A stretch of DNA of 64,000 bases, taken from the NCBI GenBank assembly GCA_051362555.1, contig CM120646.1:5952001-6016000 (forward strand), written 5' to 3'. The notes below the pieces were generated by a model. That model was not told the DNA's origin. It ran no database searches and worked only from the letters and a program-made list of their open reading frames with translations. The DNA comes from Lingula anatina. Its lineage: Eukaryota > Animalia > Brachiopoda. Positions 3,626 to 63,741 of the stretch are shown here, piece after piece; the stretch's first letter is position 1; every line of letters starts with the position of its first letter. The position numbers were made by a program, and so were the translations under genes.

Positions 3626-5478
3626 ATCTTGTTCGTATTAGTCCATTCAAGCTGTAACAGGTCGTGTTTTAATTACGAACACCAAGAGAACAATGCCTGA
3701 CACATTCACGAATGCTTGAGCAAGGCAACAAAAGGAAACTCGATATAATACTTTCATATGTACTTGTGTATTCACTCGCTGGTAAAACTGTTGGGAACAA
3801 ACGTGCTTATAACCATCTGCTTGCGCCACATCGAGGCTGCATGAGGAGAGGGAACTTGTCGGTCGTTAAACTACATGTGATGTATGAGAGATGGTGTACA
3901 TAACCGGCGACTCGTGGCCGTGATTGATCTAGAACATCGTTTTTTGCAGCACATTTGGAGCGTTCAGGAAAGAAATTACCTCAAAAGGGATATGATTGTG
4001 TTAATTATCAACCTGAACATTCGAATCCTTCCTTCATTCTAGACCTCAGCCAGTGTTACATAAATTGAGTATATGTTATGGAATATTTTGTTTATTAATG
4101 TGACAAGGATAAAATATTTCATGCCGCGAAGACCTATATGTCAACATAGTTGCTGATTATCTTTTTACAAAAGCCTGTGCCAAATATTTAGCCAATCTCC
4201 TAGTATTCATAGTCAATTTTAGTTTGTCGTTCATATTGTTGATCTAGTCCAGTTTGTGATTAAAATACGACTTCTAATGTCATCTTAAAGGTAACCCACC
4301 TGCATTTAGGCCAAAAATGGATTTTCCTGGGGTAAACGATAATTTTCCATACCTTGTTAATAAATCCATTTCTGCATCCAAAGTAAGTCCACGTTTTTTT
4401 TTCTGAAAAGTTTGTTTCGTAATAATATCTTAAATCAGTAAAATGTGTTGGCGGGGGAAAAGCCTAATTGTCATACAACGCAAACAGATTTACATATGGC
4501 TGGGCAAATGGTGAGAAACAAACCGGTTGTGCTAAGCTGTGTGTTCTGTTTGCATGACATACATGCAGAAGGAGCGGATGGCATTGAGGACAATCGCAAG
4601 CGCAGCTAACACATTTGTAAACCTTGTTAACGAGTTTTTCCAATGTTAAGGTAAAACCCCCTTTCATGTGGAATGGTGCACTGACTTAATGCAGCCTGTG
4701 CTCGATGGCTTGAGATATTGCGCCTGGTTATACGTGAGAGAGCGCGTATTGATTGATAAAACAGCAAGAACAGCGAGTGGAGAATTGGGAGTAACAGCCT
4801 CTAAAGCACGATCATACAATTAACTGGCACTGTTCCCACGTCATTCCGCGGACGCTGAAAATTCGAAAAGATAATTTTTTGTGCTGTGTATTTTGAACTG
4901 TGAAAGTGAAGCAGTGTGGAGATGCCTTCCCTGAGATGTACTGTCCTAACTGGACCTTGATTCCCAATTATATTTACACCCAACTAGAATTTATATTCCG
5001 TACGGATATAATTTCCTTTAACAGACTGTCCGGTGCTCGTCCAGTCCAAGTCGCATGTGTTTTAAACTAAACTTATAAAAGCCGGATCCAGGGACGGGGC
5101 AGAGGGGGGGGGGGGGGCACAGTGGGGTTTTACCTATCCCTTATATTATGATTAACCCTCCTCCTCCCCCTCTCCTCCCGAACGTATTGTGGCAAATCTA
5201 ATCCATTTTCCCATCCTCGTGCGATACATATACTTATATACATGTATGTATGTATAGTAAAATTACCTCGTCTTCAATTTGTGTGACCCCGCCACCCCCC
5301 CCCCCTCAGCAAAATCCTGCATTCGTCAATTAGATCGGAAGTGAATTACTGATAAAAAATGGATCCGTTTGGTTACGCGAGATAATCCAATTTTCGATTA
5401 AAATCAACCCCTAATAAGATGACTCCGGTACGTTTATCGCCAGACGCGCTGCTGCACCCGAATCAGGTACACAGGGAC

Positions 5479-8059
5479 ATGGCCCACGTGTTTGGAACTG
5501 TGATTTTGGTATGGCTGTGTGCATACGTGCCTGGGCTCTTAGGTACGTGCTTTAATACGGAACGAGATATAAGCTCTTGCTTGTGTTCTTAATTGCAACT
5601 AGGGGGTAATTTTAATTCAAATTATCGTTTAGCAGCCTTAGTAGGCGTGCCAGACAAGCCGCTTAAGCTGAAGGCAATTTAGTGAGAAACCCTTGGAGAT
5701 GGACCGATCCTGTTAGGTCGATCTAGATATAGTCTAAGTCAAATAACACCGCGCTTGAACAATAGATAGATAGATATACGGCACATCCGATCTTTAACTT
5801 TGCAGTTCCTGAAAAGTTCTTTTTAATAATACTCATCTTATCTATTTCTTCAAGTATTTTACAAATACCGGTTAACAAAAAGCAGAAAATCCTTTCTCTC
5901 TCTCTCTCTCTTTTTTTGCTACTGCCTATACTATCTGACATCATAAATCGATGTTATCACCGTTTAGCTACATCCATTCCTGGGTCTCCTTTATCATATC
6001 ATCTCATCAACCCCTCGATTGCTATATATTTCTAACAGCATCGAAACAATAACAGAGCCACATTCGCTCAGTCATCAGAAGGTTTAAAATTTCTTGCTTA
6101 ACTCCGATGTCAGGCTCAGAGAAACGCCGCGAATTATGCACGAAGGAAGGTAAGTGATGATTTCTACACAAAAGATCCATTTTGAAAGGTACAAACGATT
6201 TTTGTGTATATCATAATAGGTTATGTTCAACAACAGATGAAGAGATCACTTCTTTTTTCGTGAACTAAATGTATTTAACAGTAGTAGAATCAACAGGATT
6301 GCTGTAATGAACGTAAACAAATAATAGTATTGAAGAACGTTAAGTGCAAGACCGCTGCAGGTAAATACACAAGTTGATTACTATATAATAAAAATTCTTC
6401 TTTTTTACATGATACAAAAATCTTTTTAAGCAGCAAAATTGCTTACGTAAATGTCATCGGAATCATTAAACAACCACTTGAGAAGACTGCAGGAGTCGAC
6501 CTCTTCGTGAGAAGGGAATTTCATGAAGTTAATCGCCGGTCAAGATTGTCTTTTTATATGTCACAGTCAACTGAACGCGCATTATGTGCATAAAACTAAA
6601 ATATTCAAAAACATGTGGCTTTAATGCCCACATAACCATACATCAAAAGGCAAATTATTGATATTTTTAAAACTGCCTTGGCAGTTTTTTTCATGTCTCG
6701 TCGTGAAGCCGGTATTTAATAATTGGCATGTAATTGAAAGGGAAATGAAAGGAGTTCTGTAAATACCAGTATTTCAATTAAATAGGCATTTACAGCAAAG
6801 GAAATAAGCTTTCTACTACATTCATTATGTTACGCTTCCTCAATTTCCGCTTTCTGCATACTGGTATGATTTCACAGGATTCTAATCAAAATACTCTCTT
6901 ATTTTCTCAAAAATAGAAAAAAAGTAAAATTGAAATATAAAGAAAATAAAAATCCAGTGCTTGTATATTAAATTGCTTTATTTCCTCTCCCATTTTCCTC
7001 CTTTTTTCTGCTTTGCATTTATGAAGAATAAGCGTATGTTCTTACGACATGCAAGTCCTAATAACATTTTCATCGTTATTTTCACTTAAAATAACGCAGT
7101 TTATGGGTTCCTTCTTAATATGACTGTTTTTCTTTCTCAGATCCTATATTAACATGCACTGTCTTCTGAAAAAAAATAGGAAGATTGTGTCGATTGGAAT
7201 GACATGATTTTACATGAGTATCAATATATCTTCACACAGGTGAGTGCAGATGGGGCTGGGAGTGTGATGATGGTGCATGTATTGACTCCAGCAACAACCG
7301 GTGCGATAGCGTTCAGGATTGTCCGGATAACTCCGACGAGGTCGGCTGTGGTTCGGAGGGATGCAATGGGTTTACACGATACTGCAACTCGTCCGAGAGC
7401 TGCGTACGGATGGAGACACAGTGCTCTGATGGTAAATGTGCGGATGAATGGTGAGTACATATATTCATACATACATATGCATTCCTACGGATGTTCAACG
7501 GTGTGTGGCATTGGTGAAAAACGCTTTAGTCGGTTTAAAGGGTATTTTTGTGAAATGCAAGTACTTTCTCTTGAAAAGTACCTAAAAACGCACTTCATCC
7601 TGAGGCTCGAGGTGTGTATCGCTCAGGTGACAGTGTATTACAATGTAGGCTATCACACACATATTCAAAGCACGCCTAGATTTGATAAATATTCAGAATT
7701 TAACTACATTTTAAAGGAATGTATTGAGTCGGCATAACCTTTAATGACTTAAAATTTACCAGCCAAGGAAAAACAAGCGTGATTCTTCAGTAAAAGCCTA
7801 TTTCTAAACGTCTTGCACTGTTTCATTGAAAAGTTTCATTCCTGAAACAAATAGAATTAAAAACAACATTGGTATGCCGCGTGTGCATTTTAACATTCAT
7901 GTAAAAGATCTAGCAAGTATAAAAGCCGTTTATATAGTATATATACATGTGAGATACAATCGGCTAAAAAGTGATCATGCACATATGAAGCAGCGTGAAT
8001 TGATTTTATTATTATTATTATTATTGTTGTTGTTGTATTTGTTGTTGTTATTGTAAGTG

Positions 8060-8104
<45 letters not shown>

Positions 8105-11100
8105 TGTAATCAGGTTACCCTGTAAGAACAGCGCCAAGTGCATTCCGAAGTGGAGGCGATGTAACGGTGTGAAGGACTGCGAAGACAATTCAGACGAGAC
8201 GGAATGTGATGTTTCTGAATGTGACGGGTCGCGCTTGTCAAGACTAGGATATTGTAACGAGACAAGAGAATGCCGATTCCTAGTCAGGAGGTGCTCCGAT
8301 GGTTCCTGCCCCGGGGGTCGCCTTTCATGCACCAACGGGAAGATTTGTTACGATCCGAAATCTCGCTGCGATGGGTGGCCTGATTGCTTCGACTTGGCCG
8401 ACGAAAAAGGGTGTGACCCCAGCGAATGTGACTTGGGAGAAAGACAGTACTGCCATGCCACCAAGAAATGTCTTCCACCAATGAGAGTGTGTGATGGAGA
8501 CAAAGACTGCCCCACTGGGACCGACGAAATAGGCTGCGGACCGAATGACTGCCGCGGATTTGCCCGGTACTGTAACTCAACTGAAACATGCAGCGATGGA
8601 CGAAGAAAATGCTCGGATGGTACATGCGCAGATGTTAGTAGGTTCCCATGTAAAACGGAGGATTACTGCCTACCTTCCTACAAAAGATGCAACGGCCATA
8701 GTAATTGTGCTGACGGGTCGGATGAGCTGGATTGCGCTCCGGAGGACTGCCAGGTCCCGGACTTAAGGCACTGCCCGTCTTCAAACACCTGCCGGATGAA
8801 GGACCGGAAGTGCGACGACGGAACGTGTGAGGACGACAAATGGCCATGCGCAGGAGAAGACAAGTGCATTCTCAGGAGCCGGCGTTGTGACGGCTGGAGA
8901 GACTGCGACAACGGCTCTGATGAGTTGAACTGTACGGCAGCAGACTGTGGGGACGATAGATACTTCTGTGCTCCTACGGGAAAATGCTCCTCTAGTAAGT
9001 AGGCCTATCTGTGCACGTTACCTTGTCGTATATACGTATATTTAGCGAATAGATAAATAAATAAATAAATAAATAAATAAAAGTAAAGAAAAAAATTAAG
9101 TTCATTTCAGTAAGATCAGTAGTTTGTAAATTGGTTTATTTTTCAGGTTGGAAATTATGAAAAGTAACCTTTATTCTAGGTAAATTCGCGTACATACTCA
9201 AATACAATACCAGGTAATTGAACTTACGATCTCAGACACAGATAAATATCATATTATAGGAATTTGTTGTCATAGGCTCTGCTTTTCATAGGTGCATATC
9301 TGTACATGTATGTAACAGCGTAATAGTCTGTTTACAGTCAGCTGCATGCGTAGGCCTACGCTTTCTTATAGTAACTGTATACGCAACAGGGAATACTGTA
9401 CATATATAGGGAATACCCCAGTGGGCACTCAACGTTGATTCAACATTGAGGATAGGTTGAGATGATGTTGATCCATCAATATTGATAGATCAACAAGATC
9501 TCCACATTGAATCAACCTTTTCTTGTCAACCAATTGTCAATGTTGATAGATCAACAGGGTCTCAACATTGATTTAATCTTTCTTTGTCAATCAATTTTCA
9601 ATGTTGATAGATCAACAGGATTTCAACATTGAATCAACCTGTGTTTGTAAACCCTTTGTCAATGTTGACATATCAACTGGATCTCAACATTGGGTCAACC
9701 TTAACTTTATAACCTTAATCATAACCTTGATAATAGTTTTAAATGATTATCTCACTAGAGAGGTATGCATAGGGGTAATTACCCCTCATAAAATGCTTGT
9801 TTTATCCCTTTTTCATTAAAATTAATTTTGTGAAAAAAGCGGTCGTCAATTTTTTAAAACTTTCCAGATTTGATGTTCAGGTTATCTTTAAGAAAAAGAA
9901 AAAAACATAGGGTCACCAGCCTTACTTTATGGCAAATTGACAAAATTTTACTCAAGGTTGAAGAATAAGCTTGAAAAAGCAAAAAATGCGTGTTTTTCTG
10001 GAAATTTAAGTTAGCTGTGAGAAAAAATTAGACTGGTCACCCTTTGTTTTTGTATTCTTAAAATTATCTTAACTACCTGATGTGACGTAATAATTATTTT
10101 AGTAAAGCTAATTTGTTGTTTCATTTTTATGAGTAATTACCGTATGTGCCTGCATACTTGTATAATGTAAATGAAGTGCGGGACTGTTATTAAGTGCGAG
10201 ACTCTGGATAACATGAACTGATGCAACACGTGAGTGTGGACAGTGTGTAACACTTTTACAGTACAAAAACTGTACTTTATTAACAGTACTTTGTGAGGCC
10301 ACACTATCAGGAGGATTGTTCAACAGATAAGGACATGGAAAACAGTGACATTGCGTCTTCAAAACCCCACACTATCAGGAGGATCGTTCAACAGATAAGG
10401 ATATAGAAAACGGTGACATTGCGTTTTCAAAAACCCACACTATCAGGAGGAACGTTCAACAGAAAAGGACTCGTAAAACTGTGACATTGCGTCTACAAAA
10501 CTTAACTGTCTACGAATCTGTTAGAATTTAACTGTATTTGACAAATGTTAAAGTTTATGCAACATGATAGTATTACATGTAGTTAGTGTATGTATTGTAT
10601 GTTCATTGTTTGTAATATATTATATTCATAGTTAAATTAGTTGTTGTTTATGTTTTTTTATGTTTAAGCTGTTTTGGTCCGTAACACTGAGCATCAAACT
10701 GGAAAGTTTAAAAAGAATCTGACGACCCATAGGTGGATACAGGGGCCGGTCCTGGGGTCTGGACCCACTTTTCTTCCAAAATTACCTTTTTTTGTAGGTA
10801 ATTTTCCTAATTTCCCCCCTTTTCAGATCTGAGTCTTTTTATTTTAAGAAATGCTTGATATCTTGGAGAACACCTTCATCCATCAGGCAAATTTCAATCA
10901 AATATCCTGATAGCCTAATTGATATATCAACATTAATTCAATTTTCAAATTCAACTTAATTTCAACATTGATTCAACATTGAAGTATCAATGTTAATTCA
11001 ACATTGATACCTCAAGGTTGATTTAACCTTGATGGTTCAACATTGATTCAACTTTCATAGTCAACGTCATATCAACAAAGTTTCAACGTTGACTGTCAAC

Positions 11101-12911
11101 ATTGATTCAACATTGATACCTCAAGGTTGATTCAACCTTGATGGTTCAACGTTGAGTCAACTTTCATAGTCAACGTCATATCAACATAGTTTCAACGTTG
11201 ACCGTCAACGTTGATTCAACATTGATACCTCAAGGTTGATTCAACCTTGATGGTTCAACGTTGAGTCAACTTTCATAGTCAACGTCATATCAAAATAGTT
11301 TCAACGTTGACCATCAACGTTGATTCAACATTGATTCAACGTCATATCAAAATAGTTTCAACGTTGACCATCAACGTTGATTCAACATTGATTCAACGTC
11401 ATATCAAAATAGTTTCAACGTTGACCATCAACGTTGATTCAACATTGATTCAATGTTGATTTGCCCGCTGGGACTGTACATATATAGATACCGGTACATA
11501 ACAGTGTTGCAGTTTCACGTTATTTTATCTGTTTTTATACAGAGAGTTCTTACTGGTGCAATGGACGAATTGACTGTCAAGATAAGTCGGACGAGACGAA
11601 CTGTGGACCGCGGGACTGCAATATACACACCCGGTACTGCGCAAGCCAGAAAAGTCGAAAGTGCGTGAGCAACGTCAGGCAGTGCGCAGACAAGACGTGC
11701 GCAGCTTCCTGGTTTGCTTGTCCCCGTGGAAAGAAATGCATCCCCAATTATAAACGGTGCGATGGGAAGCCGGACTGTGGACGGTCAAGAAGGTATATAC
11801 ACGTATATATAAAGCCGAAATTATTCTCATTTAATAAATTCAAAATGAAGGGCAGTGCGATTACTTTATACAGTTTCCTTTCAAACTTTTTAATTTCATA
11901 ACAGATTCGGAGTTTAATTTGTCAAAACTATCCATTTAAAATCATCTAAAGGTCACTCCATGTACTTCATGTGAGTAATTGGATCTCATTTTCTTTAATG
12001 AGTCATTTAAAAAAAATTCATAACTTTCAGACAGGAGGTAGTGATATATCTTTCTCTCCCCAGTTTCCTCGTATTTCCCAATGTATGTTCGCACGTTACT
12101 TTTAGTGTGTATTTTTTACTTTCACAGGTTACACCAATAACTTAGAGTGCATTTAGACAATACGCACTTCACACTTTCTTAACCTAATGTAGTTATATTA
12201 ACTTGTGTTGTTTACAAAGTACAGTACAACAATTGTCGTATTTGAAACAGTTTTTAATCATGTCACTTACTGCCCTCACACATGCAGGAGGACATTCAGA
12301 ATCACTTAACATAGGACGAGTTCGTGCAAGTAGAATTTCTGAATTCTTCACATCTCAAAAGCAATATGCTACAAGAACTATCATACCCGGGACTGCCAAG
12401 GCTTTGCACATCCGACTGTACATTATACACATGCATGTTCGAATACATAAAAGTTATAATCAGTGCGCTTTTCTTTCTTAGGCATGGCAATGCAGACGAA
12501 AAGGGGTGTTCACCGGAAGACTGTCAAGTTGGCACCCGCTTCTGTAACTCCACACTGACCTGCGAGGACAAAGAGACCAAGTGTTCCGACGGCACGTGCG
12601 CTGAAGACTACTTCGCATGTAAAATATCCAGCAAATGTATTAACACGGCTTTCCGGTGTAACGGCAACCCTGACTGCAGGGCCGGGGACGACGAGGAAGG
12701 CTGCAGGCCCGAGGACTGTCGGAGCCTCGTCTGGGAGATGCGGTTCTGTAACGACACCGAGACTTGCATCCGGAAGGACCAGAAATGTGCGGATGGAAGC
12801 TGTTTGGCCGGGAGGGTGCCTTGCGCGAGGCAAGACAAATGTATTCCGCTGCGTGACGTCTGTGATGGTATCAGACATTGTTGGGACGGTGCTGACGAGA
12901 AAAACTGTTAA
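5479..12911 (+). CDS. Secreted cysteine-rich protein with 10 LDL-receptor class A repeats and no transmembrane segment, about 623 aa
   Basis: Exons 5479-5542 (MAHVFGTVILVWLCAYVPGLL, signal-like), 6114-6149 (least certain), 7240-7450, 8114-8994, 11543-11792 and 12482-12911. All introns are GT-AG and phase-compatible. Repeated C-x-G-x-x-D-C-x-D-x-S/A-D-E-x-x-C motifs; the stop follows the last module (DGADEKNC*). Confidence 0.85.
8006..8103. repeat. (TTA)n/(TTG)n microsatellite in an intron
   Basis: Visible trinucleotide run just upstream of the acceptor at 8113. Confidence 0.95.
9417..11472. mobile_element. Non-autonomous EnSpm/CACTA-like DNA transposon with subterminal repeat arrays, in intron 4 of the LDLa gene
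   Basis: Termini CCCAGTGGGCA... and ...TGCCCGCTGGG are inverted repeats, flanked by a 2-bp AC duplication (9415-9416, 11473-11474). Dense TCAAC(A/G)TTGA arrays at 9431-9700 and 10925-11460. Confidence 0.75.
10299..10501. repeat. Three-copy 68-bp tandem repeat inside the EnSpm-like element
   Basis: Units CCACACTATCAGGAGGA...GTGACATTGCGT...CAAAA start at 10299, 10367 and 10435. Confidence 0.9.
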
Positions 12912-14461
12912 ACACATGTAAAAAGATGTTAATTTGAAAGACAAACCACGGGTTTGACCTAAAGAGGCTTACTTATATGATTATCACGCATAATGAATTG
13001 TGAATTTTAATAATATTTATATAAAACTATTCAAAATAATGGGTGAAAAGGAGTGAAATAGGATCACCCAGATGATGCCCCGAGTTGCGGTTTTGTCAGT
13101 GTACAAAAATCAATTAAATATCTACAGCTTTTGCTCGTACACTGTACATACAAATCAAATTTATTTCCATTAGTCTTCTGTACTATACTGTCTTTAGTAA
13201 CGAAGATATTAAATGTTCAGGGGTTGGGCAATCTCCACGTTTCTTTCTTAGCTTGAAAAACAACTTGGTCCTTTTTATTTTGCAGCGACATCTATTGTCA
13301 TCTTTGTTGTTGACGATACAGCTCCCTCTGTTGGTCACGCTTATTTGAACTGAATTCAATGTCTCAATCTGCCTTACGCTTTGTTATACTTATACTTCCA
13401 CCAGATAAGAAACAATTTAACCCATTTGCATACTAATTACTATACTTATCGACCTGATTAAAAGCAAGCGTTGTTAATCAAAATTGGCATCTGAAAGTTA
13501 ATTTGCTTGAACGACAAAGATTATGACCAGACGTCTGCAGTAGTACGAAGTTGCATTCGGCTTCACAAATTTCTATATAAATATTTTATCAGGCTTTCAA
13601 ATTACATGCCTCTGTGTTTTCCTTCTGTAGTTAGTGGATATATCATCAGTATGATAAGACATTGTCACTGGATGTACCCGTATGTGAAAGTGACAACCAA
13701 GATGTAATGCGATAGTTTATAGATCATTTCACTTTGGACGTTTTCGAGATTTTCTGCATTGCGTTCTATAATAAAATAAAATAATAAGTAAACTGCTTTA
13801 TTGCTTGGAAGCTCACTAACATTCGGCTCTGTGAAATCTCAGTGTGATTATTCCTGTGAAACAAAATTAAACACTGAATACAGACAAGTTTGTAAAAACG
13901 AGTGGATTTAATACAACAGTGACTTAGCAGCATGTTTTAGCGGTACCATTACATATGTATACATAGCAATAAAATAAAAAAAGATATTCCACATCAATTA
14001 TTAAATAAGAAAACGGTAAAGCTAGAACATTGAATGTTTTATATTTCGCATCATGACAACTAGAACTGCAGATTGAGGGGGGTGGGTGAGTATGACAGAA
14101 TCGTGAATATTATGCATTTTAGATATCGCGATTACAAGCGGCTAAATTAACACTTTTCACAAACTTTCTGAACACCACAAATTTCACCTTTGAATCAACT
14201 GATCTGCAACTGATAGTGGTTTATCAAGTTCTATCTTTATCTCTTCAACTCTTCTTGAGTAGTATAGCCAAAATATAAACGTGCGTGTCTGTTAAGGAAG
14301 GAGGCGGGTGTCTATGATAACGTTGATTATGCTTTAATTTACATAAAGTCTAGTAAAGATGAGCGGATAAAATAGTCTACGGTAGCGAACATAACAAAGA
14401 CTTATTCTGAAACATAGGTGAACTGGCTAAGTCCACTGTCGGCGAAGTAAGAGACTCTAAG

Positions 14462-17400
14462 ATGTGGCTACTAATTCATATGAAGCACCTTGCCGTCCTT
14501 TCGTATTTCGTGATGACGTTGGCTGTTTCCGCCGTCCTTTCTAAAGGTAAGGGTGGTGTAGTTTTTATATATAACTTGATGCCAGTCTTAATTGGCTCTA
14601 GTCTTACAAGTTAAGCAAATCAGCAATTAAACCAAAGTCTAAATCAATCTCTTAAATATGTGCATTGCGTTTGCGGTTGTACAAGAAGTATGAAGCCGCA
14701 TTTTGCAACAGTAACGCTTTGCTGCACAAAGACTCAACCATGTAAGTTGTTAAACTCCATTTATCGACTTTAAATCATAGCCATCTACGGATATCTGCAT
14801 TGCATAGTCTCCATATTAAATACCTACAGCTCAGACTGTATATTCTGTTTTTTTGCATCCTTCTTAAATGATGGAGTACAAAATACTAAATTTCCGTAAC
14901 AGTTAATGAACACTGTTCTAAATGATAAAAATGACCGTGCAAGTAAAACTACCCAGTTACTGGGGGGTGGGGGGGTGGGGGGTGGGGGGGGGGGGGGTAC
15001 ATGAACATATATATATCATACAAAATAACACACTGGTGGACATCAGTACACGTCGGTGCACGTGTTTTGTGTAATATTTAGCAAAACATAGCTGTTTTGC
15101 AAAACTTTAAAAAACAAAATTTAATTAGATTTAATTATATAAAATATTAAAATAACTATTGATTTCTTCCACATAATTGGTGTGTATTACAGTATGTAAA
15201 ACAGAAAAAAACGATGGAGCATATGTCAGAATCCGATGTATGAGCGACAATGTCGTGATTCAGTGTTACCTTTGTGGAATATCTGTAGTATATTATCTAT
15301 GTATAGGGCTGGGCCATGCGGGTTATTGAAGTAGACGTACACAGTGGGGTAAACTTTGCATCTGCTCAATTTGTACGGTTACATACCTGATAACTTAAGT
15401 ATCTTTTAAGAGTAAAAGTATTATGTGTCGATACGCATGTTTGTTAACACCAATTAGGGAAGCGATGAGTAGATGCAAACTTGTATTGTATGCTGAACCT
15501 TTGACAGAAAACTTGTTCAGTATACATGTACTTGTATCGTTGCATTTTTTCATTTTCTAGGGAAGATAGACCAGAAGAAACCAAGAATATATGAATATTG
15601 TTCCTTTGACGGAAAACCAAACGTATCAGAAGCATTAAGCTCCTACACCATGCACCCCCTTCTGACGCCCAGTCTGTTCCCCAAAGTTCCACCCACGATC
15701 AACTTCGTGGCCATAGGACAGCAAGGTGGGCGATATTCTAATATGCCTGATGTTGTCAGGACATTCGATCATAGAAGGGATGTGTGTGTATTTTTTTCAG
15801 ATGTATAAACAGTGTTTTTTTTACCTTCTTTTTTCAATAGAAAGCCTTTATGTGTAAATTAATGTACCAGTAGTATTGTGTATCAAGATCCATGATGCAT
15901 AAACCGAGGAACCATAAGGATTTCAGGGATTTGTTCGTTATAGAACCTTTAAATGTGTACAGTTTCATTTCAGACGAAATTATGCATAGAAAAATTAGTC
16001 TGTTGTAGTACTACATCTGTACATCTTAAATTTGGCCTTGTTGAGTAGAAGAAAATATACTGATGATTATATTTCAATATATATTGCCACAAATCTTTTT
16101 TTCAGTGGAGCCACCGCATGAGAAAATTGCGAAGTATCTGAAATGGTATTCGCTAGACACAGGCGGCACAAACATGCTTGTGAAGGAATGCTTGGAACGG
16201 TCGTGGTTTGAAAATACTTACGGTGAATTCTCTCTCTGACTAGTTAAAACACAGCGTCAATATTTCGAATATCAGAAAAAAAAAAGTACATTTCAGGAGA
16301 ACTGATCTACGTGCATATAATTCGCTAAATCATAGCCTATGTAGAATTTTTTTGCCATGCTTCTTAAGTAGTAAACACTGATGGGTAGAGGGACACGTTT
16401 CACTACTCATTTTACTGCTCAGTTAATATCATAAAAATTATAGAGACAAATGGGTAAAACATTTAGTCATCATCCAGATGTTTTAATATAGAAAAGAACT
16501 TTTCACATCAGAAAACAAAACTTTACTTTCAGATTAAGGGAATTTTATTTGAATAATTTTATACATATATTTATTTTGCTTTTTATTACTTTATCTCTCT
16601 CTATACTTTAGACTAGTAAACAAGAATAAACAATATGAATTAACTCTATCTTTTTTAAAGTACGCTCATTGAAAATTTTGTAGATTTTTGGCATAATTCA
16701 TAATTCAAATTAAATATCATTGTAACTTTTTATTAGATTCAAATGAATGGCTGGGGCACCACGCACAAATGTTCCTCTTAACGGAGACAATCAGCATAAT
16801 GAAGAATCTAAGGCCACACCAAAAGGTTATAGTGACTTTCCTCTTTTAGACTAAGCATTATTTCTATGCAGTGTCCGAATATTCTGGGTATTATAGATAA
16901 GAGTTAAATATAATATTATTTGATAACCTCTGAAAGATACAGTCTTTCTGAAAGTTAAGATATGTACAAGAAAACAAAAAGTAATCACTAGTATAATGGT
17001 GCAAAACAACATTTTTTTGAACGCTTAATTTAAAGTTATTCATTTCGGCTTTGTAGTGCGGCGTCATACCAAATAGAGGACAATATTATAGAAAAGACTT
17101 TTTAGCTTTGAACATTAGGCGTCTGAGGGAAACACACGGCGACAAAGAATTCAATATCACACCCGAGACGTTTATTTTGCCCTTTGAGAAGGCGCAATTG
17201 AAAGCCGCTTGGAACAAGAGCAGTGAAGAACCAAAGTGGATTGTCAAACCGGTGAAGTATAAGAACGCACTGACATACAATGTACATACATGTCAGGTTC
17301 GTAGCCAGGGGGGGTTCGAGGTTCGAAAGTACACACATTTTGCTGGGGAAAGTTCCCCTCTGGGCAAAATGTTATCTAGGTACCAGTGCACGGAGGTTTC

Positions 17401-20400
17401 ATGGTAAAATGCCCTCTTTTTCACAAAAAGAGTCCATCCTTTTGAAATTGCTGGCTACTGGCCTGCATGTAAATATAACCCTCTACCACGACGACATTTT
17501 TACATATATTTCTCTGGCTTGCTCTGGACACAATCTGTACACCGAGCACCGAGCATATAATTATTAGCACAGAAGTGACGCCCACCTCAGCTGGAGAATA
17601 AATAAGCATACTCACAAACAATGTCATTGCGCTAATGTATGTTGGACTTACATTCAACATGTAACAACTGCGCTTTGCAGATGATCTGCAAATTTTAAAG
17701 TGGCCCAGAGCAAATTTTATGTACTGATATACCTGTATATGTTTATTGTTTCATACACGTTTTTTTATTGAAATACATTCATAACAATATTTACGGTGTT
17801 TTTGTTTAAATGTAGGCATTCTCTTGTTGTGGAAGAAATGTTGAAGTGGTTCATCAGTGGGAGCAATTGGACGTATCCCCGAGTCCACCAACGGTTGTCC
17901 AAAGGTATGTGTAGCAAGGAATAAACCTACCGTACTGCACATGTTTATTACATATATGTATAACGCATGAGTAGAAAATATAAATACAAAACAAACAATG
18001 GGTCGTGAAACATACTGAACAAAATGATGGATTTTTGCAGATTTTTATCTTTCACTGCTTACTGTTCTGTTCCAGATACATCGATAGACCTTATCTACTG
18101 GATGGCAAGAAAAACGACCTGAGGCTTTTCGTGTTCATAGCTTGTTTAGACCCTCTTCGATTTTACATATTGAACAAAGGTTTAGTCAAATTGGCCACTG
18201 TCAGGTATGTAATATGACCGATGTCACACACACACACATGCTTAGTCATTTCCATGTACTTCGAAGTTTAAACTGTATATAAATGATGTTGAACGTGACG
18301 TAATACTTGTTATGCACAGGACATGGCGTCCATACTTATTAATATGTTAGGGTAAACCCCCCTTTACACTGGATGGCGTCCTCTCTGCGTCCGTAGTGCG
18401 ACTATGAAACTGGCATCACTGTGGTCGTAGAAAGGAGGCACAAGCATCGCTTTGGTTGCAGAATAAATGCTCAATGATCGGCCAGTTTTCGGCACGTAAA
18501 GTATTAATTTTTTTTACTCTCAAACCGGTCCGTACTACGGGTCGCACAAAGGGTACCTTCCAGTGTAAAGGGGGCTTAACTAAACGATACAAACAGGATT
18601 TAGGCCCATTTACCTGATAGTGGGCGTCTACTAACAAACAAGTGGGAACTTGAGTATGAGAGTTCACCTCCTTGCAAATTGATAACATGGTAATGAGAAT
18701 CTTTATTCCACAGGAATGGGTACCATTACAAACATTTCCTGTAGGAAGTCCTATAGGACTTTATGTGACCCGATAGGCCTATAGAAAACATATCTAACTA
18801 AACTAAGGCATAGGTCCTATATGATTATGGACCAATTTCCTATAGGACACCCTATAGGACCCTAGAGGGAAATTCCATTAGGATAACGACCCGTTTCTTT
18901 ACTAAGCTGTTGAATACTTAAATTACACAGTATTTTAAAGGATATTGTTAAAACGAGCCGGAGGGTCTGGAGGGCTTGGAATTAACAGTTAAAAGCCCAC
19001 CCACCCAGAACCAAAACTGATAAAAAGCGTTGTTTTTTTTTCTGACAAAGACACCCTTGCTGGTTACATTCCTGTGTAATAACATAATTAGCACCCCTTA
19101 ATCATAAATCTGATTGTGTTCCAGATACTCGAACGACATGGACAGTTTGAACAACAAATTCGTGCACTTGACCAATCGAGCGATAAATAAGCACCACGAT
19201 TCTTTTATCACATACAAAACTTTACGTGGAGGATTTTTATGGTATGTGACCTGTGTGCAATCTTATGCCGCATTCACAACAGATGATGCTTGAACTAACT
19301 TGTCCACGAATCAAATATGGCCTACCCCACTTGAAAACAATGTTGCACAATCCCCTAATAGTCTCCCGCCTACCGCACGCGCCATCCTAAACGGCTCCAA
19401 GATTTTATTGCTAGGGATGGCGCGTGTGATGTAGGCAGGGAGACAGTTAGGGGGTTTGAAGAATTGCTTTCAAGTGGGGTCGGCCATATTTGATCCAGGA
19501 ACTAGTTAGTCCCCGGATCATCTGTTGTGGATGCCGACTTCTTACATGTATGTCATAATCTGGTCAAAACACATTTATGACAGGTACAGATGCAGATCAA
19601 GAAGGTACTTTTCTTTCCTCTCTTAGATATTTGCAGAAAGAATTATATCTTCGGTTAAATAATCCTAAATTTTCTTCAGTTCTATAGATTTAGGCCTGTT
19701 TTGATCTTTCAGTGTTCTTGTAATTATTAAATGAAATAAATGAGTTTTGAGAATTGATGAATTGCATTTAATGTAGAATCATGGCATTGTTAATGAGAAG
19801 TGGAAATAAGACGCACGCTTTTTATTTGTTTATATCATAAGGTCATTAGAGCCTCTTTGGGAGCATATACAGGAAAAGGGTGGAAACCCGCGAGAGGTGT
19901 GGGAGAACATGAAGGATGTCGTGCGAAAGACCATAATAAGGTATGGGAATGTTAGTGATTGTAGAACATGAGCATTGTACATCGTTAAATGCAAAATGCC
20001 TATGTAAGTAACATTTATGTGATATGGTCATAAAGGTTTATACTTTTGTATGTTATTGTATTGGTATATGTATGCATGAGCACACGAAAGCGCCTACGAA
20101 AGCGATTTTGTTGAATATCTAGGCTTCGGAATTGGGAAAATTTAACGATGCATCATGCACCATGGTCTAAATGTTGTTTATATATGTAAATTGAAACATA
20201 AAAGGTGAACGATTAAGTATTGGAAAACAGTTATCCGTTGGAATCGTTATGAGATACAAGATAACTCATTAATATTTAAATTGAAAGACAAAACGTTATA
20301 AAAAGTACATACGAGCTATCCAAATATTAGGCAAAATTTGGTTTTTTTCTTTGTCCAATCAACACCGCAAAAAATATTATTCCGTTAACCCCCCCCCCCT

Positions 20401-22509
20401 AAAAAAAAATGGGAAAAAAAAAGAAAGATGAAAATAAATAACGGTTCCCAACGTTTCCCAACGAATGCGCGAGGGTCAGATTTCATGAGCACTCTATCAC
20501 AATTTTTTTATACATCGTAATTTTAATTACACAAAATTTTCTTCCAGCGGCGAGAAAACCACGAATAAGATACTGAAATCTTCTGTAAAGTCTAGGACAG
20601 CGGTGCATGAGGTTTACGGATTTGACATTATGTTGGATGATGATTTGAGGCCTTGGGTTTTGGAGGTCAACAACCAGATAGGCCTCTAGTAAGTTTTGGA
20701 ATGGTTGTTATGCATGTCGATGCATGCCAAAGGTGTGTGCACGTGTGTCAAGTGAAGCAAGACCCAAATGCTTGTGTAGCTGTAAGAAAGTGTCATCATA
20801 ACTGAACATAGTATGCATGTCAGTGAATACCATAATATAGCCAGACATACAGTTTTTAGATATGTGCTTTTTCATTATCTCGTGCACCAGCGGCTTGGTT
20901 TAAACCCAGAGCTCTACAGCTTATACCTTCTCGTCATATTGGGTCTTGCGTAAACGTACAATTAAATCGCACATTAAGTCATGCGTAGGATATTGGGATA
21001 TGTGCGACTGTCGTTACGTGTCAGTGGTTTATCAAACTCATTTAAGTTTTGCTGCTTTGTATTAAAATATATTTCGTACGATGCGTATTTTATTGAGGTA
21101 ATGCGTATTCGAATTACAGCCGACATTCGGAAAATGTTGATGGGATAGTTGTGAAAGACATGCTTAATATAGCGGGATTCCAGATACCAGGAGATGCAGA
21201 CATCGGGACCAATGGTGAATTGAACCAAGGAAGAAGGTACACAGTGTTGGCCTATTAATATTGATCTTGCGGTACTAGAAAGGGATAGTTTTAATCACAT
21301 CCTCTTTTATGTTTGTTTATAGTTTATTCATATTCACGTACACTTTTACTTTCTATAAAGAACAATTATAAATGAAATGAACAAAAAGGAATAATTCAAG
21401 ATGTATATTCATTTAAGAACTAAAGTACCTGCTCAAATATATTTTCAAGCTGTACATGTTGTCTGAATCGTATTTAAAATCCAGGAACTTTGAATTTGAT
21501 GACGTGAAAATGGACATGCGGCTTCACACATATGTTTTGTCCCCAGACGAGAACGAGAAACATGCATTCTACTGCAAGTACGCAAATAATTTGGTAAGTA
21601 AATCAAATACCAACTGGCTGAAAATAGGCGTAGATTAGTAGGCAAAGGTGTGATTAATTAAAATTCAACTTGTTGTTGTCTCACATATACGGCAAAGACA
21701 AATATGAAACCCAATAACGTATGCACATTTAATTTATAATTACAGACAATCCAGAGCACCATATTGGATGTTCTTACCCCAGATGACGTCAGAGTTCTCG
21801 TAGAAACAATAGACGAGCAGAATAGGAGAGGAGATTATGAAATACTGTTCCCTTCTGAGTCTGATAAATACATTCAGTTCTTAGAGATACCAAGGTAAAG
21901 CAGGCGCACCGCATTACATTAGTCGGTCATAACGTAGACATTTTAAACATTAATTGAGGTTATTTAAATCAATGTTTTTCTAACGACAGAAATGCCTACT
22001 CGAAATAGGAAAAATGTAGATTTGTTCTTCTTCACACGCACTGCATTACATCTATATATAGATTATGACATAGGCATTTTTAAACATAGATTAATGTAAT
22101 TCAAAATAATCTGTGCTCATCTCGTGATTAAGAAACAGTCGAAAACGAAAAAAAAAACGTTGATTTGTTCTTCTTCTTTCCAGATACTACAATCTCTTAT
22201 TACACCAGTGGACCAAGCGTTTTAAAAACAGAGAATGGCAAGGAGTTCAGTTATTACAGGCACTTTGTCAGAAATCTATTCATCTGCAAAACCCAACAAG
22301 CGATCCAAAACACAAGGTATTTCGATCATTTATATACATTTTAGGATGGAAACTCGAATTTAAGTCCTGTTTATTTGCACTTCAGTATGACCGTTTGAAT
22401 GTAACACAAGCATTCGCTTTACATACGAAAATCAACATTTTTCTGATTCAAATAAGTCATTTATCCTTACTACATTTGCATTTTTCAGTGGACAAATCCA
22501 GAACGCTGA
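14462..22509 (+). CDS. TTLL4: TTLL4-like ATP-grasp ligase (tubulin-tyrosine-ligase family), divergent, with N-terminal signal-peptide-like exon, about 584 aa
   Basis: 15 phase-consistent GT-AG exons: 14462-14546, 15561-15725, 16106-16222, 16737-16825, 17057-17251, 17816-17904, 18076-18204, 19125-19241, 19842-19940, 20548-20688, 21120-21236, 21485-21593, 21746-21894, 22184-22316, 22489-22509. TTLL4-type motifs: PSLFPKVPPTINF, PETFILP, KWIVKP, VVQRYIDRPYLL, DLRLFV, DPLRFY, HLTN, HEVYGFDIMLDDDLRPWVLEVN, ILDVLTPDDVRVLVE, PRYYNLLLHQW. More likely a paralogue than the canonical orthologue. Confidence 0.85.
17294..17466. mobile_element. MITE with CAGG(C/T)TCGTAGCCAG-type terminal inverted repeats
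   Basis: CAGGTTCGTAGCCAG... at the left end and ...CTGGCTACTGGCCTG at the right. A related copy ends CTGGCTACGAGCCTG at about 29875. Confidence 0.65.
18356..18576. mobile_element. PIF/Harbinger-like MITE
   Basis: Terminal repeats ACCCCCCTTTACACTGGA / TCCAGTGTAAAGGGGGCT with TAA on both flanks. Confidence 0.75.
19268..19536. mobile_element. Foldback MITE, near-palindromic over about 270 bp, in a TTLL intron
   Basis: Left arm GCATTCACAACAGATGAT...AAATATGGCCTACCCCACTTGAAA...CGCGCCATCC mirrors right arm GGATGGCGCG...TTTCAAGTGGGGTCGGCCATATTT...ATCATCTGTTGTGGATGC. Confidence 0.75.
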
Positions 22510-22934
22510 CGCGAACGAGTTGAACAGAAGATTTTGGCAAAAAACGATCAACATGTATCAATTTGAAGGTTATTGCTAGCTAACTGGAGATAAAACCCGA
22601 CGTGTGTTCGTGTCATAGGGGTTGACTGTGTTTCATTTATATTAAAAAGTGTAATGTTTAATTAAGTTTAGAAGTATGTCTGACCATTCAAAACATCTTT
22701 GCAGTAGTTTAACTTTTTGAAAATTAAATCTGTCGTGTTATATTAATGGCCAATATCGTGATGCATCCGTTTTTTGTGAATATTTTCTTGAAATAATATA
22801 TCTATATCTATCTATCTATCTATATAAACAAAAGCTGCAATAACATGGCATAAGCAGTTAATAAATCAATAAACCAGTTGGCAGTCTTCTCGGTCAGTAC
22901 GTAGAAAGCTAAACTAGAGGTTGTATCCCAACCA

Positions 22935-25900
22935 TCACGACAGGCGCGAGTCCCACAGAATGAGCAGACGATCAGGTGCCCTCAGCACGCGCGGTGTCTT
23001 GTACTGTAATCGACTTGTACGAGGGTTGCTTTCCACTATGGCGTCCTTCAAGGCATTGAACGCCCCGGTCTTCACTTGGATAACTTTCATGGGGAGAATA
23101 CTTCCATTATCTCTCAACATCCTGTAAACTTCGTGTTCTTGGTACAAAACGTCTTCAAACTAAAACATATAAAGATAAATCTATATTGGTATCGACTTTA
23201 AATGCAATGGCGGGCATTACTGCCACCACAGTAAGCATACACCTGTTCGAATGGTTTTCCACTTTAAATACATTTTTTCTTCTGAAAGCAACGGTTACAT
23301 CAGCTTATAAAACCACAACTATTATTAGGAATTGTACAGTTCCATTCTTATATCAAACATCTCACATCTAAAAACTTGTTTTAGTTCCTAATAACACATT
23401 TGACAATTGAAAAAAGTATGCAAACAAAGAAATAATACAAAAGCACTTCCCATCTGCTTCTGTTGTGAAGTCATTCTCGCTTGTTTCTTGTTCGAGTTTT
23501 CTGACAACTCCATAAACAATACGTAGTGTCGTCCATTTTGTAGAGCGTCTGAAAAAAAAGTTTTATGTTGTTATGTGCAGTGGGTTGTTACATGAGACTT
23601 TATCTTTAATGTATATCCATAATTAAAGCAGACCAAACGATGTAAGACCTGCCGTGGATTAACTTACCAGCGATAGCATCAAAGTTGACGTTCTCCGTTG
23701 CAGTATATTCAACAATGTCAACATCGATGCGCTTGGCTGCTCCTCGGAGTGCGTGGACAAAGGCCCCCTCGGTCATCTTTTCCCAGTAAAGATTCAACAT
23801 CTGCCCCAGTCTGAAATAAAACATAATAGCGACATTTAAACGGATTTAACTTAAATATTTCCTCACTTAATTTCCACTGGTTGATGGTTCTATCCCGACA
23901 TTCAAAGTTTTTGTCATGTTAGTAACAACTAAGTTTTGTATCTAATAAAAGGCGGCCGTGATATCAATGACTAACAAATATGAATTATTTATTTCAATAG
24001 TTTGGTGAATTAAAAGGTTAAACACAACTGATAACGGTTACATCAGTTTATAAAACCACAACTATTATTCGGAATTGTATAGTTCCATAAAATAATAATT
24101 GCTTTTTTCTTGATGTAAAGCTGATCAGTGATCAGTAGGAGTTACCTATATTGGAACTCATATACTGGAACCTGGTTGTGAAAATCTACTATCTTCACCA
24201 CGTCACCTTGTCTGTAACGCACGGCAACCGCGGTTGTTATAACCAGTTCATAACACTGTCCTATTTGTACCTGATTGGGGGATAAAAAACATATTACACA
24301 ATGCATACAAATAAGACAACTAAAACGGATAAAGAATCAAACGTGTATTATAAAGAAAGTATCAGTTATATAAATATTAACTTTCAAGTAAATATGAGAT
24401 TTTGACAAAATTTGGGAACCCAGTAAAATTAATTGTGACGGGAACATCCCATGGAGTTGCCCAAACATTCATGCATGCAACAACAGAGCAAATTTGTCAG
24501 TGAAAACCCCGGGGAGGGGCATATACTACTTTAAAAGACCACTTCATGTTAAAAGAATTGTAATAGGAAACTCTCTCCACCCGTTTGAAAATCCCCCATG
24601 GCCATATGCATGTCTGTCTTGTGAAGCTTTCCAAATTCAAACTCCAGACAATAAAACCTTATTATAAAAAAATGTATGTGAAGCCTGTCTGGGGTCCTTA
24701 TTATCTCTCCAAGTGCAAAGATGGGTCAAACAGTTAGTGCTCTATTTGTGAATAACAGCAAATTGTTCTTTATCACAGTAAAATTCATTTTGGAGGGAAA
24801 ATCCCATGGAGTTGCCCTTAAACCTTAGTTTTTCCAGTGAAAAGAATAAAGAAAACATTAAGCTGAGACTAGAGCACAACTGCCTCATTAGAGCTACAGT
24901 TAATTGTGCTTACCTCCTCAATGGGCACCACACGGGGAGATGGTTTATCTGTTTCCTCCACAGGGATGAAGTCAAAGTGATTTAAGGAAGTCGTCATAAT
25001 GAACCGCGTTTGGCTGTTGTCGTCAGGGTCACTAAATCCGAAAAAACCCTCTGTGGCGGCATGGAGGGGATTACAAAACTTAACGTCTTTCAGATAATGC
25101 TTCTTCAATCCTTCGGCCTCAGGCAAAAGAGAACCCGAGCTCAACAATATAGCAGCGTTGCATTCCGGCCATAAACGGCGCACAATTCCGTCAAAGCCCT
25201 GTCTTATGATCTGTCTAATTTCAACAGCTCTTTGGGGATCCGCCCTCATATCAGTCTGCAACTTTTCCCTAATGTCCTCGGGTATGTCCAAATCGGTGTT
25301 CAGAGTACCGTGTTCTATATCGTCACATAGCTGTGGCCACTGGTGTTCCAAAGTTTGACAAAACCGGGTAGCAACAGACGGGAAAGAAAAGTTGAAAGCC
25401 CCAATATCAGGATCTTTAAGGGCAAAGAGAACATGTAAATAATGGGCCTCGTTTTCGGTAGTGACGTCATACACGACACGTGGTGAAATCAAATAACTTG
25501 GAAAGAACTCATACATCCCAGCTATAGGTCCAGTTCTTATGCCACTGTCAGTAAATTTTGTCTTGACTCCTATTCTGACCTCGTGATAGCGTTTCAGGTC
25601 ATCCCATAGCCCAGCTCTCTTAAAGCTTAAAGTACTAAAGAGAAGGTTTTTAAACAACTTTGATGGTTTGGCAAACATCTCCTTTGTATATACGAACGCT
25701 TTGTTTTTACCGGTGGTCCCTGAAGTAAAGGCGATGTAAAACGGGTCAAATGGAGTGATTTGGTTTTTTTCGCCCGCTACAGTTTTGTCAATGTAAGGTT
25801 TAAGGTCGGCGTAAGACAGAACTGGGTGCAGTTTCAAAAAATCTTCCCTCGTCCGCATCTGATAATAATTGTGTTTCTTGCCAAATTCCGTATTTTCCAG

Positions 25901-27445
25901 CGAGCGAATGTAAAACATTAATGCATCTTCTTGCATCTTGCTGATGTTCTTGCTTGCTGTCTCAAAATTCCTGAGAGAAAAATACCCAAACACTCGGAAC
26001 ATTTGTGTAAGAGTGTACTGTAGTAACACCGTCCTCAACGTGTGGCTTTTAGCGGGTCGTTTCCTGTATATGTCATAGGTGACAAGGCCTCCGGCACCCG
26101 TGAAGAATACCACTAGCCCTAACAAAGAATAAAAAGGAAAATTAAAATGTAGATTAATTCATATAGTGATAATAGTGAGATTTAAAGATCAAATTAAAAA
26201 GATCAGAATGTGTTTAGGTAACATGGACGGTGACCAGTATATTATATCATACGGATTCCTTTTTGCCAAAAATATATAAGGCGTGTCTTATCAGCCATCA
26301 TGCCTAGGAAGTTATACGCCTATATGGGCTAAATGTAATTTTCTCTTCACCCTATTACCTGAATATCTATTGTATTTCTGTCCGACTCGATAACAAGATA
26401 ACAAAAACTCAGTACTAGGAATATTTTGTAATTAAGTTGCCTTAAGCATGAATATATATTCTCCGGGTACCCGCACGAAAACGCAGTAGATACTCCAGCG
26501 CAGTAGACTACTGCAATCAGTAGTCTGTAGTCTGTCAAATTTAAAAGGGTGTATATTTATCATATACGTTTATTACTCTGAAGATGCTTTTTCCTTGATT
26601 CAGTTTTGTATGTAAGAGTGAAGATAAATTTTACAACACATATTGAAGATAAATTGCATGAAACTACCGTGTTATAGCAATATGAAATTGAAATATGCCT
26701 TTGGAGATTATAGTAAGCCGACGACCATTGGGTATAAAATAAACATTGTTTTAGGATTACCGCAAGCAGTTTCCTTAACATCTTCTTTTTAAGTGCAACG
26801 TTTACGGGACACATACATGTATACCACTGCTACACTTAAACTTAACCAAGGCACATGTGCTCTGCAAACGGTACGCCCTCTTTGCATAGCGCCATGAATG
26901 TACAGTGCAGTGTTGGTTTGATATGGACCCTGTTCATTGAATAACGTAAGACGCGACTTAAGGGTTCAGTAAGCGGGACATCGATTGGCCTTGCATACTG
27001 GTTTGTATTTCTCCACCTAACCTTCTCCTCTATCTGTTTGAGTGAATTGAAAACTACACCCCAATCTGACACGTCAAGTAAAGCTACTATCTTTAAAGGT
27101 CAGGTGAATGCATGATGAGATGTTATTTCTAAGCCGAAGGATAAATGATTCTCTGTACAGCGTTAATAATTAAAGCGTAAAATAAAATATTTAAATGGCC
27201 AGAGGAATATCTGTTAATACTCGGTAAAAAACAATCTGTGTTTTTGGAAGAGGGTAACGTAAAGTAATGTAAATACGTGTATATAATTAGTACACATACA
27301 AGGTACTTGAAGCTGACCTACCCCTGAATGCAGCTTGCCAGCCACTCGTGTCCTTCCAGTTATGGAACAAGTTGATGACTTGGTACAATGTCACCACTGT
27401 AAAAACCTGGCTCACAACCAAGAACTTGGTGCCAATAGAGAGCAT
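22935..27445 (-). CDS. GHDC: GH3-domain protein (GHDC-like acyl-acid amido synthetase), copy 1, about 639 aa; intron 5 donor is non-canonical (GG)
   Basis: Exons 27445-27322, 26118-24914, 24270-24146, 23810-23668, 23548-23451 and 23159-22935. GH3 motifs: FTSGTTGKNK, HAATEG, FDFIP, YELVITT...YRQGDVV, HYVLFMEL, QYKTPRVL. Confidence 0.85.
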
Positions 27446-27744
27446 TCTGGTAGTTTGGAACGCCTGTCTTGTTGATAAACCGCCTCAGTTCTTCGCCGAA
27501 AGATAATAGTTTGAAGAATATTTAAGTCAACTTGAGGCCCAGTTAGATGTGTCGCCTGCAAGACAGGTTGAGCATAATAAGTACATGCACATGTAGACAA
27601 AGTTTGCTAAATGGCGTTGCTTTATTTGTACATCAGTCTTAAGCTGGTGGGTGTATTTGTACCCGTGTGTACGTATCTAGGTCATGCTGATAGAACGCCA
27701 CGGGCAGTGAGGTACAGCAGCTACGATTAAATCAGTAAACGAAG

Positions 27745-28200
27745 TGACGCCAGGTATAAACTAGAGGATAAGATCGGGATAAACCTCCAAAGTAGGTCAG
27801 AGGTCAAAATCAAGGTCACATTAAGATACCGAATAAAGTTCAGCAGTGACCATAACAGTAAAATTGCGAGTATTGGAGCTATAAGGACAAGAACATTGGC
27901 AAACTGCATTTCAGGGTGAAAGTACTTGCATGTGAAACTAAAAGGTCAAACTCAAGGTTACCTTAAGGAGTCGCAATATACGATTTCGAATTTATGTTCA
28001 ATGGTACCTATTGGCTTATCTCTGCTAGTTCTGAAAAAGGTACGGCTGAAACATTTGCAAAGTCCAGTTCAAGGGTGAAAGTAGGACTGCCAATATTTGA
28101 CTTCCTATTCATATTTATTAGTAATAAGGGTGTATCGCAGCCATTTCTGGGGTATTTAAGATTTTATTTTAAAATTTTATTTTCGCCATTTGAAATAGCG
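27745..28200. repeat. Degenerate interspersed-repeat remnant upstream of GH3 exon 1, co-duplicated with each unit
   Basis: An AGGTCA(A)AGGTCA / GACTTCCT...AATAGTAA-rich segment recurs at about 36710-37200, 44620-45200 and, inverted and partial, at 59830-60040. Family not assigned. Confidence 0.5.
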
Positions 28201-28832: not shown

Positions 28833-28956
28833 CCCTAAAAGCAGCCTGCTAGGCACTCGTGTCCTTCCAGTTTTGGTACAAGTTGATGACTTGGTACAAT
28901 GTTGCCGCTGTACAAACTTGGCTAATCACTAAGAACTGGGTGCCTGTAGAGAGCAT
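28833..28956 (-). pseudogene. Dead duplicate of GH3 coding exon 1
   Basis: Reads MLSTGTQFLVISQVCTAATLYQVINLYQNWKDTSA*QAAFR. TGG has become TAG; the donor GTAGG is retained. Confidence 0.85.
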
Positions 28957-63566: not shown

Positions 63567-63741
63567 GTGAGCACTAGTCTGGCTTTGAGTTTTTCTTTAT
63601 TCTTTTCACTGGTTTATGGGCAACTCCATGGGATTTTCCCGCCAAAATGAATTTTTTCCTACTCATAAATACCGGCCGGTATGCTTGACCCATCCTTGCA
63701 CTTGGATGATGTTTGATTCCATTTTAAACATGATCATTTAG

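Follow-up and report, generated by a model that had tools for sequence, protein, structure and literature searches.

To our knowledge, the substrates of all biochemically studied TTLLs are tubulin tails or other acidic proteins, which these enzymes modify in the cytosol or nucleus. A gene of the brachiopod Lingula anatina, located in a 64,000-nucleotide stretch of contig CM120646.1 (assembly GCA_051362555.1, positions 5,952,001 to 6,016,000 of the forward strand; here termed the window, and numbered from its first letter), raises the question of whether a member of this family has left that setting. A first-pass annotation, made from the sequence alone, had read the gene as a TTLL4-type ligase that enters the secretory pathway, and had deduced from this an undescribed ligation on secreted substrates. 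The question has two parts, namely whether the product is exported and whether it can still be a glutamylase. Our reading is that the gene is a diverged TTLL4 duplicate with an ATP-grasp core, likely lumenal or extracellular, and joining an amine other than glutamate to carboxyls of secreted molecules, and we consider the chances that this is correct to be evenly balanced.

Gene structure and the first exon

Exon chaining over positions 13000–30000, performed independently of the first-pass annotation, yielded the same 584 amino acid product from 15 exons on the forward strand, extending from an ATG at 14462 to a TGA at 22507–22509, without internal stops and with GT-AG boundaries at all 14 introns. 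Exon 1 (14462–14546) encodes a hydrophobic peptide of 28 residues, a predicted signal peptide, and we infer that it is joined in phase 1 to the AG at 15559–15560. The frame that is entered carries the TTLL4 N-terminal motif PSLFPKVPPTINF in exon 2 (15561–15725), which also encodes a linker. The exon 1 donor, AAG|GTAAGG, matches the consensus at 8 of 9 positions and is joint best among the 14 donors of the gene; an A occurs at -3 of the ATG, and there is no second candidate exon of the same kind. Upstream lie an in-frame TGA (14408–14410) and an AG (14416–14417), in a region (14408–14461) that is probably 5' untranslated, as judged from the codon comparison given below. The exon, its donor, the phase 1 frame, the TGA and the AG had all been described in the first-pass annotation and each was found again in the sequence. 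Likewise, the long N-terminal extension of TTLL4 is missing as described, with the signal-like exon in its place.

Exons 3 (16106–16222), 4 (16737–16825) and 9 (19842–19940) also belong to the chain, and exons 12 to 15 (21485–21593, 21746–21894, 22184–22316 and 22489–22509) encode the TTLL4-type C-terminal helical region and the stop; the remaining exons are considered together with the active site residues that they carry. Exon 1 and the whole 15-exon frame are intact and open in two Lingula assemblies. Identity to L. anatina XP_013413055.1 (LOC106175538) amounts to about 97%, with 15 of 584 residues differing.

The upstream LDLa gene and the RefSeq fusion model

An LDLa-repeat gene (5478–12911, forward strand), with its own signal-like exon and a stop at 12909–12911, precedes the TTLL gene. 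In RefSeq the two are fused into XP_013413055.1, a model of 1167 amino acids in which a weak GT at 12802 is joined through the AG at 14416–14417, and which also employs the donor of TTLL exon 1. Taken literally, the model describes one receptor-like protein that has LDLa repeats outside the cell, crosses the membrane with the hydrophobic stretch of TTLL exon 1 and exposes its TTL domain to the cytosol. The 1167-residue model exists in RefSeq and UniRef, the two genes are neighbours on one strand with compatible frames, and the basic residues that follow the helix are as in a type I membrane protein. However, the fusion donor, GCT|GTTTGG at 12801/12802, lies in the last LDLa exon and agrees with the consensus at 3 of 9 positions, where the 14 TTLL donors reach 6 to 8; its use would truncate a complete LDLa repeat before the natural stop. 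In the runs X7, X8 and X9 reads extend beyond this GT, and those of X9 cross the stop, where TAA appears as TGA, into the 3' untranslated region, while no joint of the LDLa gene to 14418 is listed among the reads. The reads that pass the GT are 4 to 10 deep and about 94% alike, so that they possibly derive from another allele or copy.

Divergence just ahead of the ATG also speaks against the fusion. Between the window and the RefSeq allele, three of the 14 codons from the AG to the ATG are changed, compared with the 15 of 584 residues in the protein (Fisher p=0.007), a faster divergence that is as expected for untranslated sequence. The first-pass annotation had named a 5' extension through this AG as the structure which would speak against its own reading, and RefSeq does annotate it; the weak donor, the read-through and the codon divergence suggest an artefact of prediction. 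We consider a genuine receptor-like fusion very unlikely, and a gene-prediction merge in RefSeq probable. Were the fusion true, it would be a striking receptor-ligase in its own right.

The LDLa gene has some features of its own. It carries two alternative phase 1 ATG exons, at 5478–5542 (signal-like) and 6107–6149 (non-signal, and the RefSeq choice), and a transmembrane segment was not seen in the exons that were read. One of its introns contains short-unit tandem arrays at 9420–9720 and 10900–11470, bounded near 9417 and 11462 by inverted ends that are related, which together probably constitute a non-autonomous element.

Signal peptide or membrane anchor

Signal-likeness was scored with our own rules, a stricter one based on 11 residues and one based on 8 residues with a score above 2, and not with SignalP. 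Among the 27 phase 1 mini-exons running from an ATG to a GT on both strands of the window, two were signal-like: TTLL exon 1 and the first exon of the LDLa gene. A signal-like exon arose by chance in 23 of 500 Markov resamples of the region 12912–15560. Candidate cleavage sites, located with our own heuristics, lie after A21, S23 or A24. In the AlphaFold model, residues 2–25 form a separate low-confidence helix followed by a flexible linker, with pLDDT below 50 at residues 18–45.

The same peptide could instead remain uncleaved, with its N-terminus out and its C-terminus in, and act as an anchor by which a cytosolic ligase is held at the ER or some other membrane. In the window allele the hydrophobic stretch comprises 18 uncharged residues, with a mean hydropathy of 1.8 over 19 residues, and it is followed by five Lys or Arg within ten residues, a pattern consistent with an anchor whose enzyme domain lies in the cytosol. 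The positive-inside rule, by which such basic stretches remain on the cytosolic side, is established knowledge on membrane topology. A cytosolic location would also solve the problem of ATP supply. Against this, the RefSeq allele carries an Asp at position 24 which cuts the uncharged run to 14 residues, so that a cleaved signal fits better than an anchor, and the hydrophobic core of the Lingula paralogue XP_013397583.1, at about 8–12 residues, is too short to anchor. We regard a membrane-tethered cytosolic enzyme as distinctly unlikely, and a cleaved signal peptide remains our preferred reading of exon 1.

Two further properties carry no weight here. The model contains sequons at N49 (NVS), N185, N205 (NKS) and N483, among them the NVS and NKS which had been cited in support of secretion, but canonical cytosolic TTLL4 cores hold 3.4 +/- 1.6 sequons (n=163), compared with two in the core of this protein, and the argument was dropped. 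The cysteine count was likewise uninformative.

Neighbouring genes and RNA reads

Downstream lies an array (22935–63650) of at least five near-identical copies of GH3-domain genes, belonging to the acyl-acid amino-acid ligase family, and the first of these is convergent with the TTLL gene. Their large exons occur at 24869–26158, 32325–33713, 40535–41824 and 49649–50962 on the reverse strand and at 62322–63650 on the forward strand, and the genes encode a hydrophobic N-terminal stretch; the two copies scanned matched Pfam GH3 with E-values of 4e-55 and 2e-53. The proximity of this second family of ATP-dependent amino-acid ligases may be a coincidence. An open frame of 384 amino acids (56647–57801, forward strand) has an N-terminal type II-like hydrophobic anchor, resembles Golgi enzymes by architecture only and yielded no Pfam matches. 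Two overlapping frames (34146–35467, forward strand) hold part of a LINE-type reverse transcriptase, identified by eye.

Eight of nine raw-read RNA runs from the same species (all but X6) were mapped to the window, reading 6–30% of each run. Within that sample there were no reads on exons 1–4 of the TTLL gene and none that crossed a TTLL splice junction, while junction reads for the neighbouring GH3 gene occurred in all four runs of one set. Depth in X1 over 19753–22848 is confined to one mate direction and most likely represents the 3' end of the GH3 gene on the opposite strand, so it was not counted as TTLL expression. Most of the RNA reads on the TTLL gene are attracted by short interspersed repeats in its introns (17290–17470, 18350–18580 and 19300–19500). 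In the RNA sampled, transcripts of the TTLL gene would at best be scarce or limited to certain tissues.

The empty exons 1–4 also fit a gene that is barely expressed, or a transcript that starts elsewhere, in an unseen 5' exon or at a downstream Met such as M59, and that yields a diverged but cytosolic TTLL. A second candidate phase 1 ATG exon, ending at 14741, has a donor with 8 of 9 consensus positions and is non-hydrophobic, and a chance rate of about 5% for a signal-like exon is not negligible for a genome-wide scan. On the other side, exon 1 is open in both assemblies, its donor is shared with the RefSeq model, and a paralogue independently begins with a signal-like peptide. We judge a different start to be rather unlikely, and exon 1 is retained as the putative beginning of the protein.

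Relatives and descent

Homology searches covered 5.8 billion proteins and 1.84 billion representatives, and the best matches in all of them were ordinary TTLL4s of molluscs and annelids, at about 42% identity. By comparison, the lophotrochozoan TTLL4 pairs tested are 64–68% identical, with the Haliotis TTLL4 showing 68% and 64% to two other rows of the lophotrochozoan clade and 60% to chicken. XP_013413055.1 was the sole match when exons 2 and 5 were searched singly, and searches of the ESM Atlas returned only generic TTL clusters. A canonical Lingula TTLL4 did not occur among the 20 named proteins of the 145 from the representative search.

Lingula does encode further diverged TTLL4-like proteins, XP_013397583.1, XP_013398235.1 (partial) and XP_013413702.1 (N-terminus missing). 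Together with the window protein they cluster within the lophotrochozoan TTLL4s, with SH-aLRT values of 85 (60 rows) and 86 (26 rows), a grouping that depends on quick trees with long branches; that of the window protein amounts to 1.5 changes per site. Judged from these comparisons, the window gene descends from TTLL4 but differs from ordinary TTLL4.

XP_013397583.1 is the only one of the four, besides the window gene, with a complete N-terminus, and its start is also signal-like. Under the 8-residue rule, which was set after the sequences had been seen, the highest scores among 229 Met-starting matches were those of XP_013397583.1 (3.61) and the JGI record P0189 (2.74), compared with 2.31 for the window model and 1.51 for the next match. 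XP_013397583.1 fails the stricter 11-residue rule because of a single Lys. A search for signal-bearing relatives, which the first-pass annotation had advised, yields these two of 229.

P0189 forms a long branch beside arthropod TTLL4-like proteins and is unrelated to the Lingula grouping. P0265, a longer member of the same cluster, has a fuller hydrophobic stretch ending in A-x-A, and its frame is open upstream. The JGI records P0189, P0265 and P0266 stand for a diverged TTLL4-like protein of an arthropod-like lineage whose N-terminus is signal-like, which has lost both donor lysines (see below) and which carries Phe at the position of TTLL6 R241; it possibly represents a convergent secreted TTLL or a pseudoenzyme.

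The question of export can now be taken as a whole. Entry into the secretory pathway, as originally claimed, is favoured by an exon that is intact in two assemblies, by a second Lingula paralogue with a signal-like start and by the loss of basic charge described in the next section; on the negative side, RefSeq extends the frame 5', and an anchor with a cytosolic domain remains a candidate.

Active site, charge and fold

For the RefSeq allele the match to Pfam TTL (PF03133) scores 218 bits against a cut-off of 20.1, four single exons match separately, and in the TTLL part of the protein Pfam matches are to TTL/ATP-grasp only. The AlphaFold model shows a predicted TTLL fold (mean pLDDT 87.8) for which the top Foldseek match is TTLL6 (E 1.3e-32, TM 0.86 by target, 22–23% identity in the structural alignment). 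Residues are compared below in TTLL6 numbering, taken from the available part of bioRxiv 10.1101/2020.06.07.139295 and transferred by alignment.

The TTLL6 residues K125, K174, R219, N264, D346, E359 and N361 are all retained. Among the ATP and Mg residues kept, K165 and K216 (TTLL6 K125 and K174) are encoded in exon 5 (17057–17251), R263 (TTLL6 R219) in exon 7 (18076–18204) and the Mg/catalytic residues D388, E401 and N403 in exon 10 (20548–20688). Exon 7 also carries K285 in place of R241, the invariant Arg that serves phosphate and the donor alpha-carboxylate. The change is conservative; canonical rows have Arg here in 193 of 194 cases, and mutation of this residue abolishes TTLL6 activity according to the available part of the same study.

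The substrate side is very different. The active-site loop in exon 6 (17816–17904) reads SCCG where TTLL4 has SARG, so that the initiase Arg at position 180 is replaced by C222. The initiase Ile at position 362 has become N404. In exon 8 (19125–19241) HLTN is kept, Y265/S266 are changed to R308/A309, and the first donor-Glu lysine, K283, to L328. ISPS has become NQIG in exon 10, and the second donor lysine, K377, has become D416 in exon 11 (21120–21236), an equivalence placed via the TTLL4 alignment across a three-residue deletion. Both lysines, by which glutamylases hold the side chain of the donor glutamate, are described in the available part of bioRxiv 10.1101/2020.06.07.139295 as invariant in all glutamylases, with mutation of either abolishing activity, and as absent from TTL and the glycylases. 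Lys occurs at both positions in 237 of the 247 rows covered and at neither in five, which are the window gene in its two alleles, two Lingula paralogues and P0189. XP_013397583.1 has Lys at both aligned donor columns, together with changes in the 180 loop and at Y265/S266. Overall, 22 of 72 near-invariant TTLL4 positions are altered in the window protein, and these are concentrated at substrate-contacting positions.

The net charge of the core is 0 (-2 in the paralogue) compared with +26.7 +/- 8.2 in 161 canonical TTLL4s, two of which lie at or below +3, and a low core charge is shared by some other diverged rows. This loss argues against glutamylation of tubulin or of acidic proteins in the cytosol. 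With the donor pocket rebuilt, the protein is probably no longer a glutamylase and, since both the glutamylase and the initiase residues have changed, classification as a TTLL4 glutamylase would be inappropriate. The first-pass annotation had not recognised this probable loss of glutamylase activity.

A protein so altered might be secreted or lumenal and yet catalytically dead, or nearly so, and serve as a TTLL4-derived binding protein. The Lys at R241, the 22 altered positions of 72 and the long branch are all compatible with this, and inactivated ATP-grasp domains have been noted for some CPED1 orthologues in the available part of PMC2824669. On the other hand, all seven ATP, Mg and phosphate residues besides R241 are retained, the changes cluster where substrate is contacted, and R241 is present in the two Lingula paralogues in which it is covered. 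We hold loss of activity to be rather unlikely, and favour an enzyme with altered substrates.

Proposed activity

The ATP core is retained, the substrate pocket is rebuilt and export is predicted, which suggests that a non-glutamate amino acid is likely to be joined to secreted molecules instead of tubulin. Under this proposal, TTLL4 would have duplicated in Lingula and the long N-terminus been exchanged for a signal exon, such that the product enters the secretory pathway and works extracellularly or in the lumen of the ER or Golgi; the basic charge, which suits tubulin tails, would have been lost and the donor pocket re-tooled. By analogy with TTL and TTLL chemistry, lumenal ATP would phosphorylate the acceptor carboxylate, and the acyl-phosphate would then be attacked by the donor amine, with ligation of an amine other than glutamate. 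A supply of lumenal ATP exists for the secretory kinases. The presence of Asp and Leu where glutamylases have two Lys leads us to guess at a neutral or basic donor.

A broader proposal is that TTLL4 has been re-routed into the secretory pathway, and its donor pocket re-tooled, more than once in animals, in the Lingula family and in an independent arthropod-like lineage (P0189/P0265), giving an undescribed modification. We put this forward tentatively and regard it as less likely to be right than wrong. The modification could place an amine, or an amino acid of neutral or basic character, on Glu/Asp or uronic carboxylates, and the substrates could be components of the secreted matrix, possibly of shell or mucus. 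A role of the window protein in shell or matrix is speculation. TTLL terms are absent from the one file inspected from each of two Lingula/lophotrochozoan shell-proteome supplements, PMC4595640 and PMC13425148, which may contain gene-model identifiers only, and acidic shell proteins that are secreted do not feature in the available part of the Lingula genome paper, which reports none.

Comparison with known ligases

Domain order, the N-terminal PSLF motif and the ATP and Mg residues are shared with TTLL4, the monoglutamylase or initiase (PF03133). The window protein differs from it in being only about 42% identical, whereas lophotrochozoan orthologue pairs lie at the values given above, in having a signal-like exon instead of the long N-terminal extension, and in lacking the initiase Arg, Y265/S266, ISPS, K283 and K377, with a charge of 0 instead of about +27. 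TTLL6 (PDB 6VZT series), the structural reference for TTLL catalysis, is the top fold match, with a phmmer E-value of 3e-42, but Q180, H362, R241, K283 and K377 are changed. The two donor lysines are missing from TTL and the glycylases TTLL3/8/10 as well, their donors being Tyr or Gly (bioRxiv 10.1101/2020.06.07.139295, available part), although these enzymes are cytosolic and phylogenetically separate. The substitutes differ as well: Glu and Tyr in TTL, hydrophobic or polar residues in the glycylases, and Leu and Asp here.

The idea of a secreted TTL-like ligase was known before, having been predicted in 2010 for CPED1/C7orf58 (PMC2824669, available part). To that extent the ligation originally proposed had a precedent, which the first-pass annotation did not mention, and its reading as a whole receives partial support from the present results. 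In CPED1 the ATP-grasp domain is distant and is fused to cadherin-like and PC-esterase domains, while the window protein stands alone as a recent TTLL4 offshoot, which implies a separate origin. Among the publications listed in our literature searches, outside subscription journals, none describes a signal-bearing TTLL4. What appears to be new, on present sequence comparisons, is a stand-alone animal TTLL4 offshoot in which targeting and pocket have both changed, and in more than one gene.

Implications

For annotation, the results flag the RefSeq model XP_013413055.1 as probably a wrong fusion. For the family, secreted TTL-like ligases have so far been predictions only, as for CPED1 in the available part of PMC2824669, and the window protein offers a small single-domain enzyme with which ATP-dependent amino-acid ligation in the secretory pathway could be tested directly. 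It would also illustrate how the donor specificity of a TTLL can be re-tooled.
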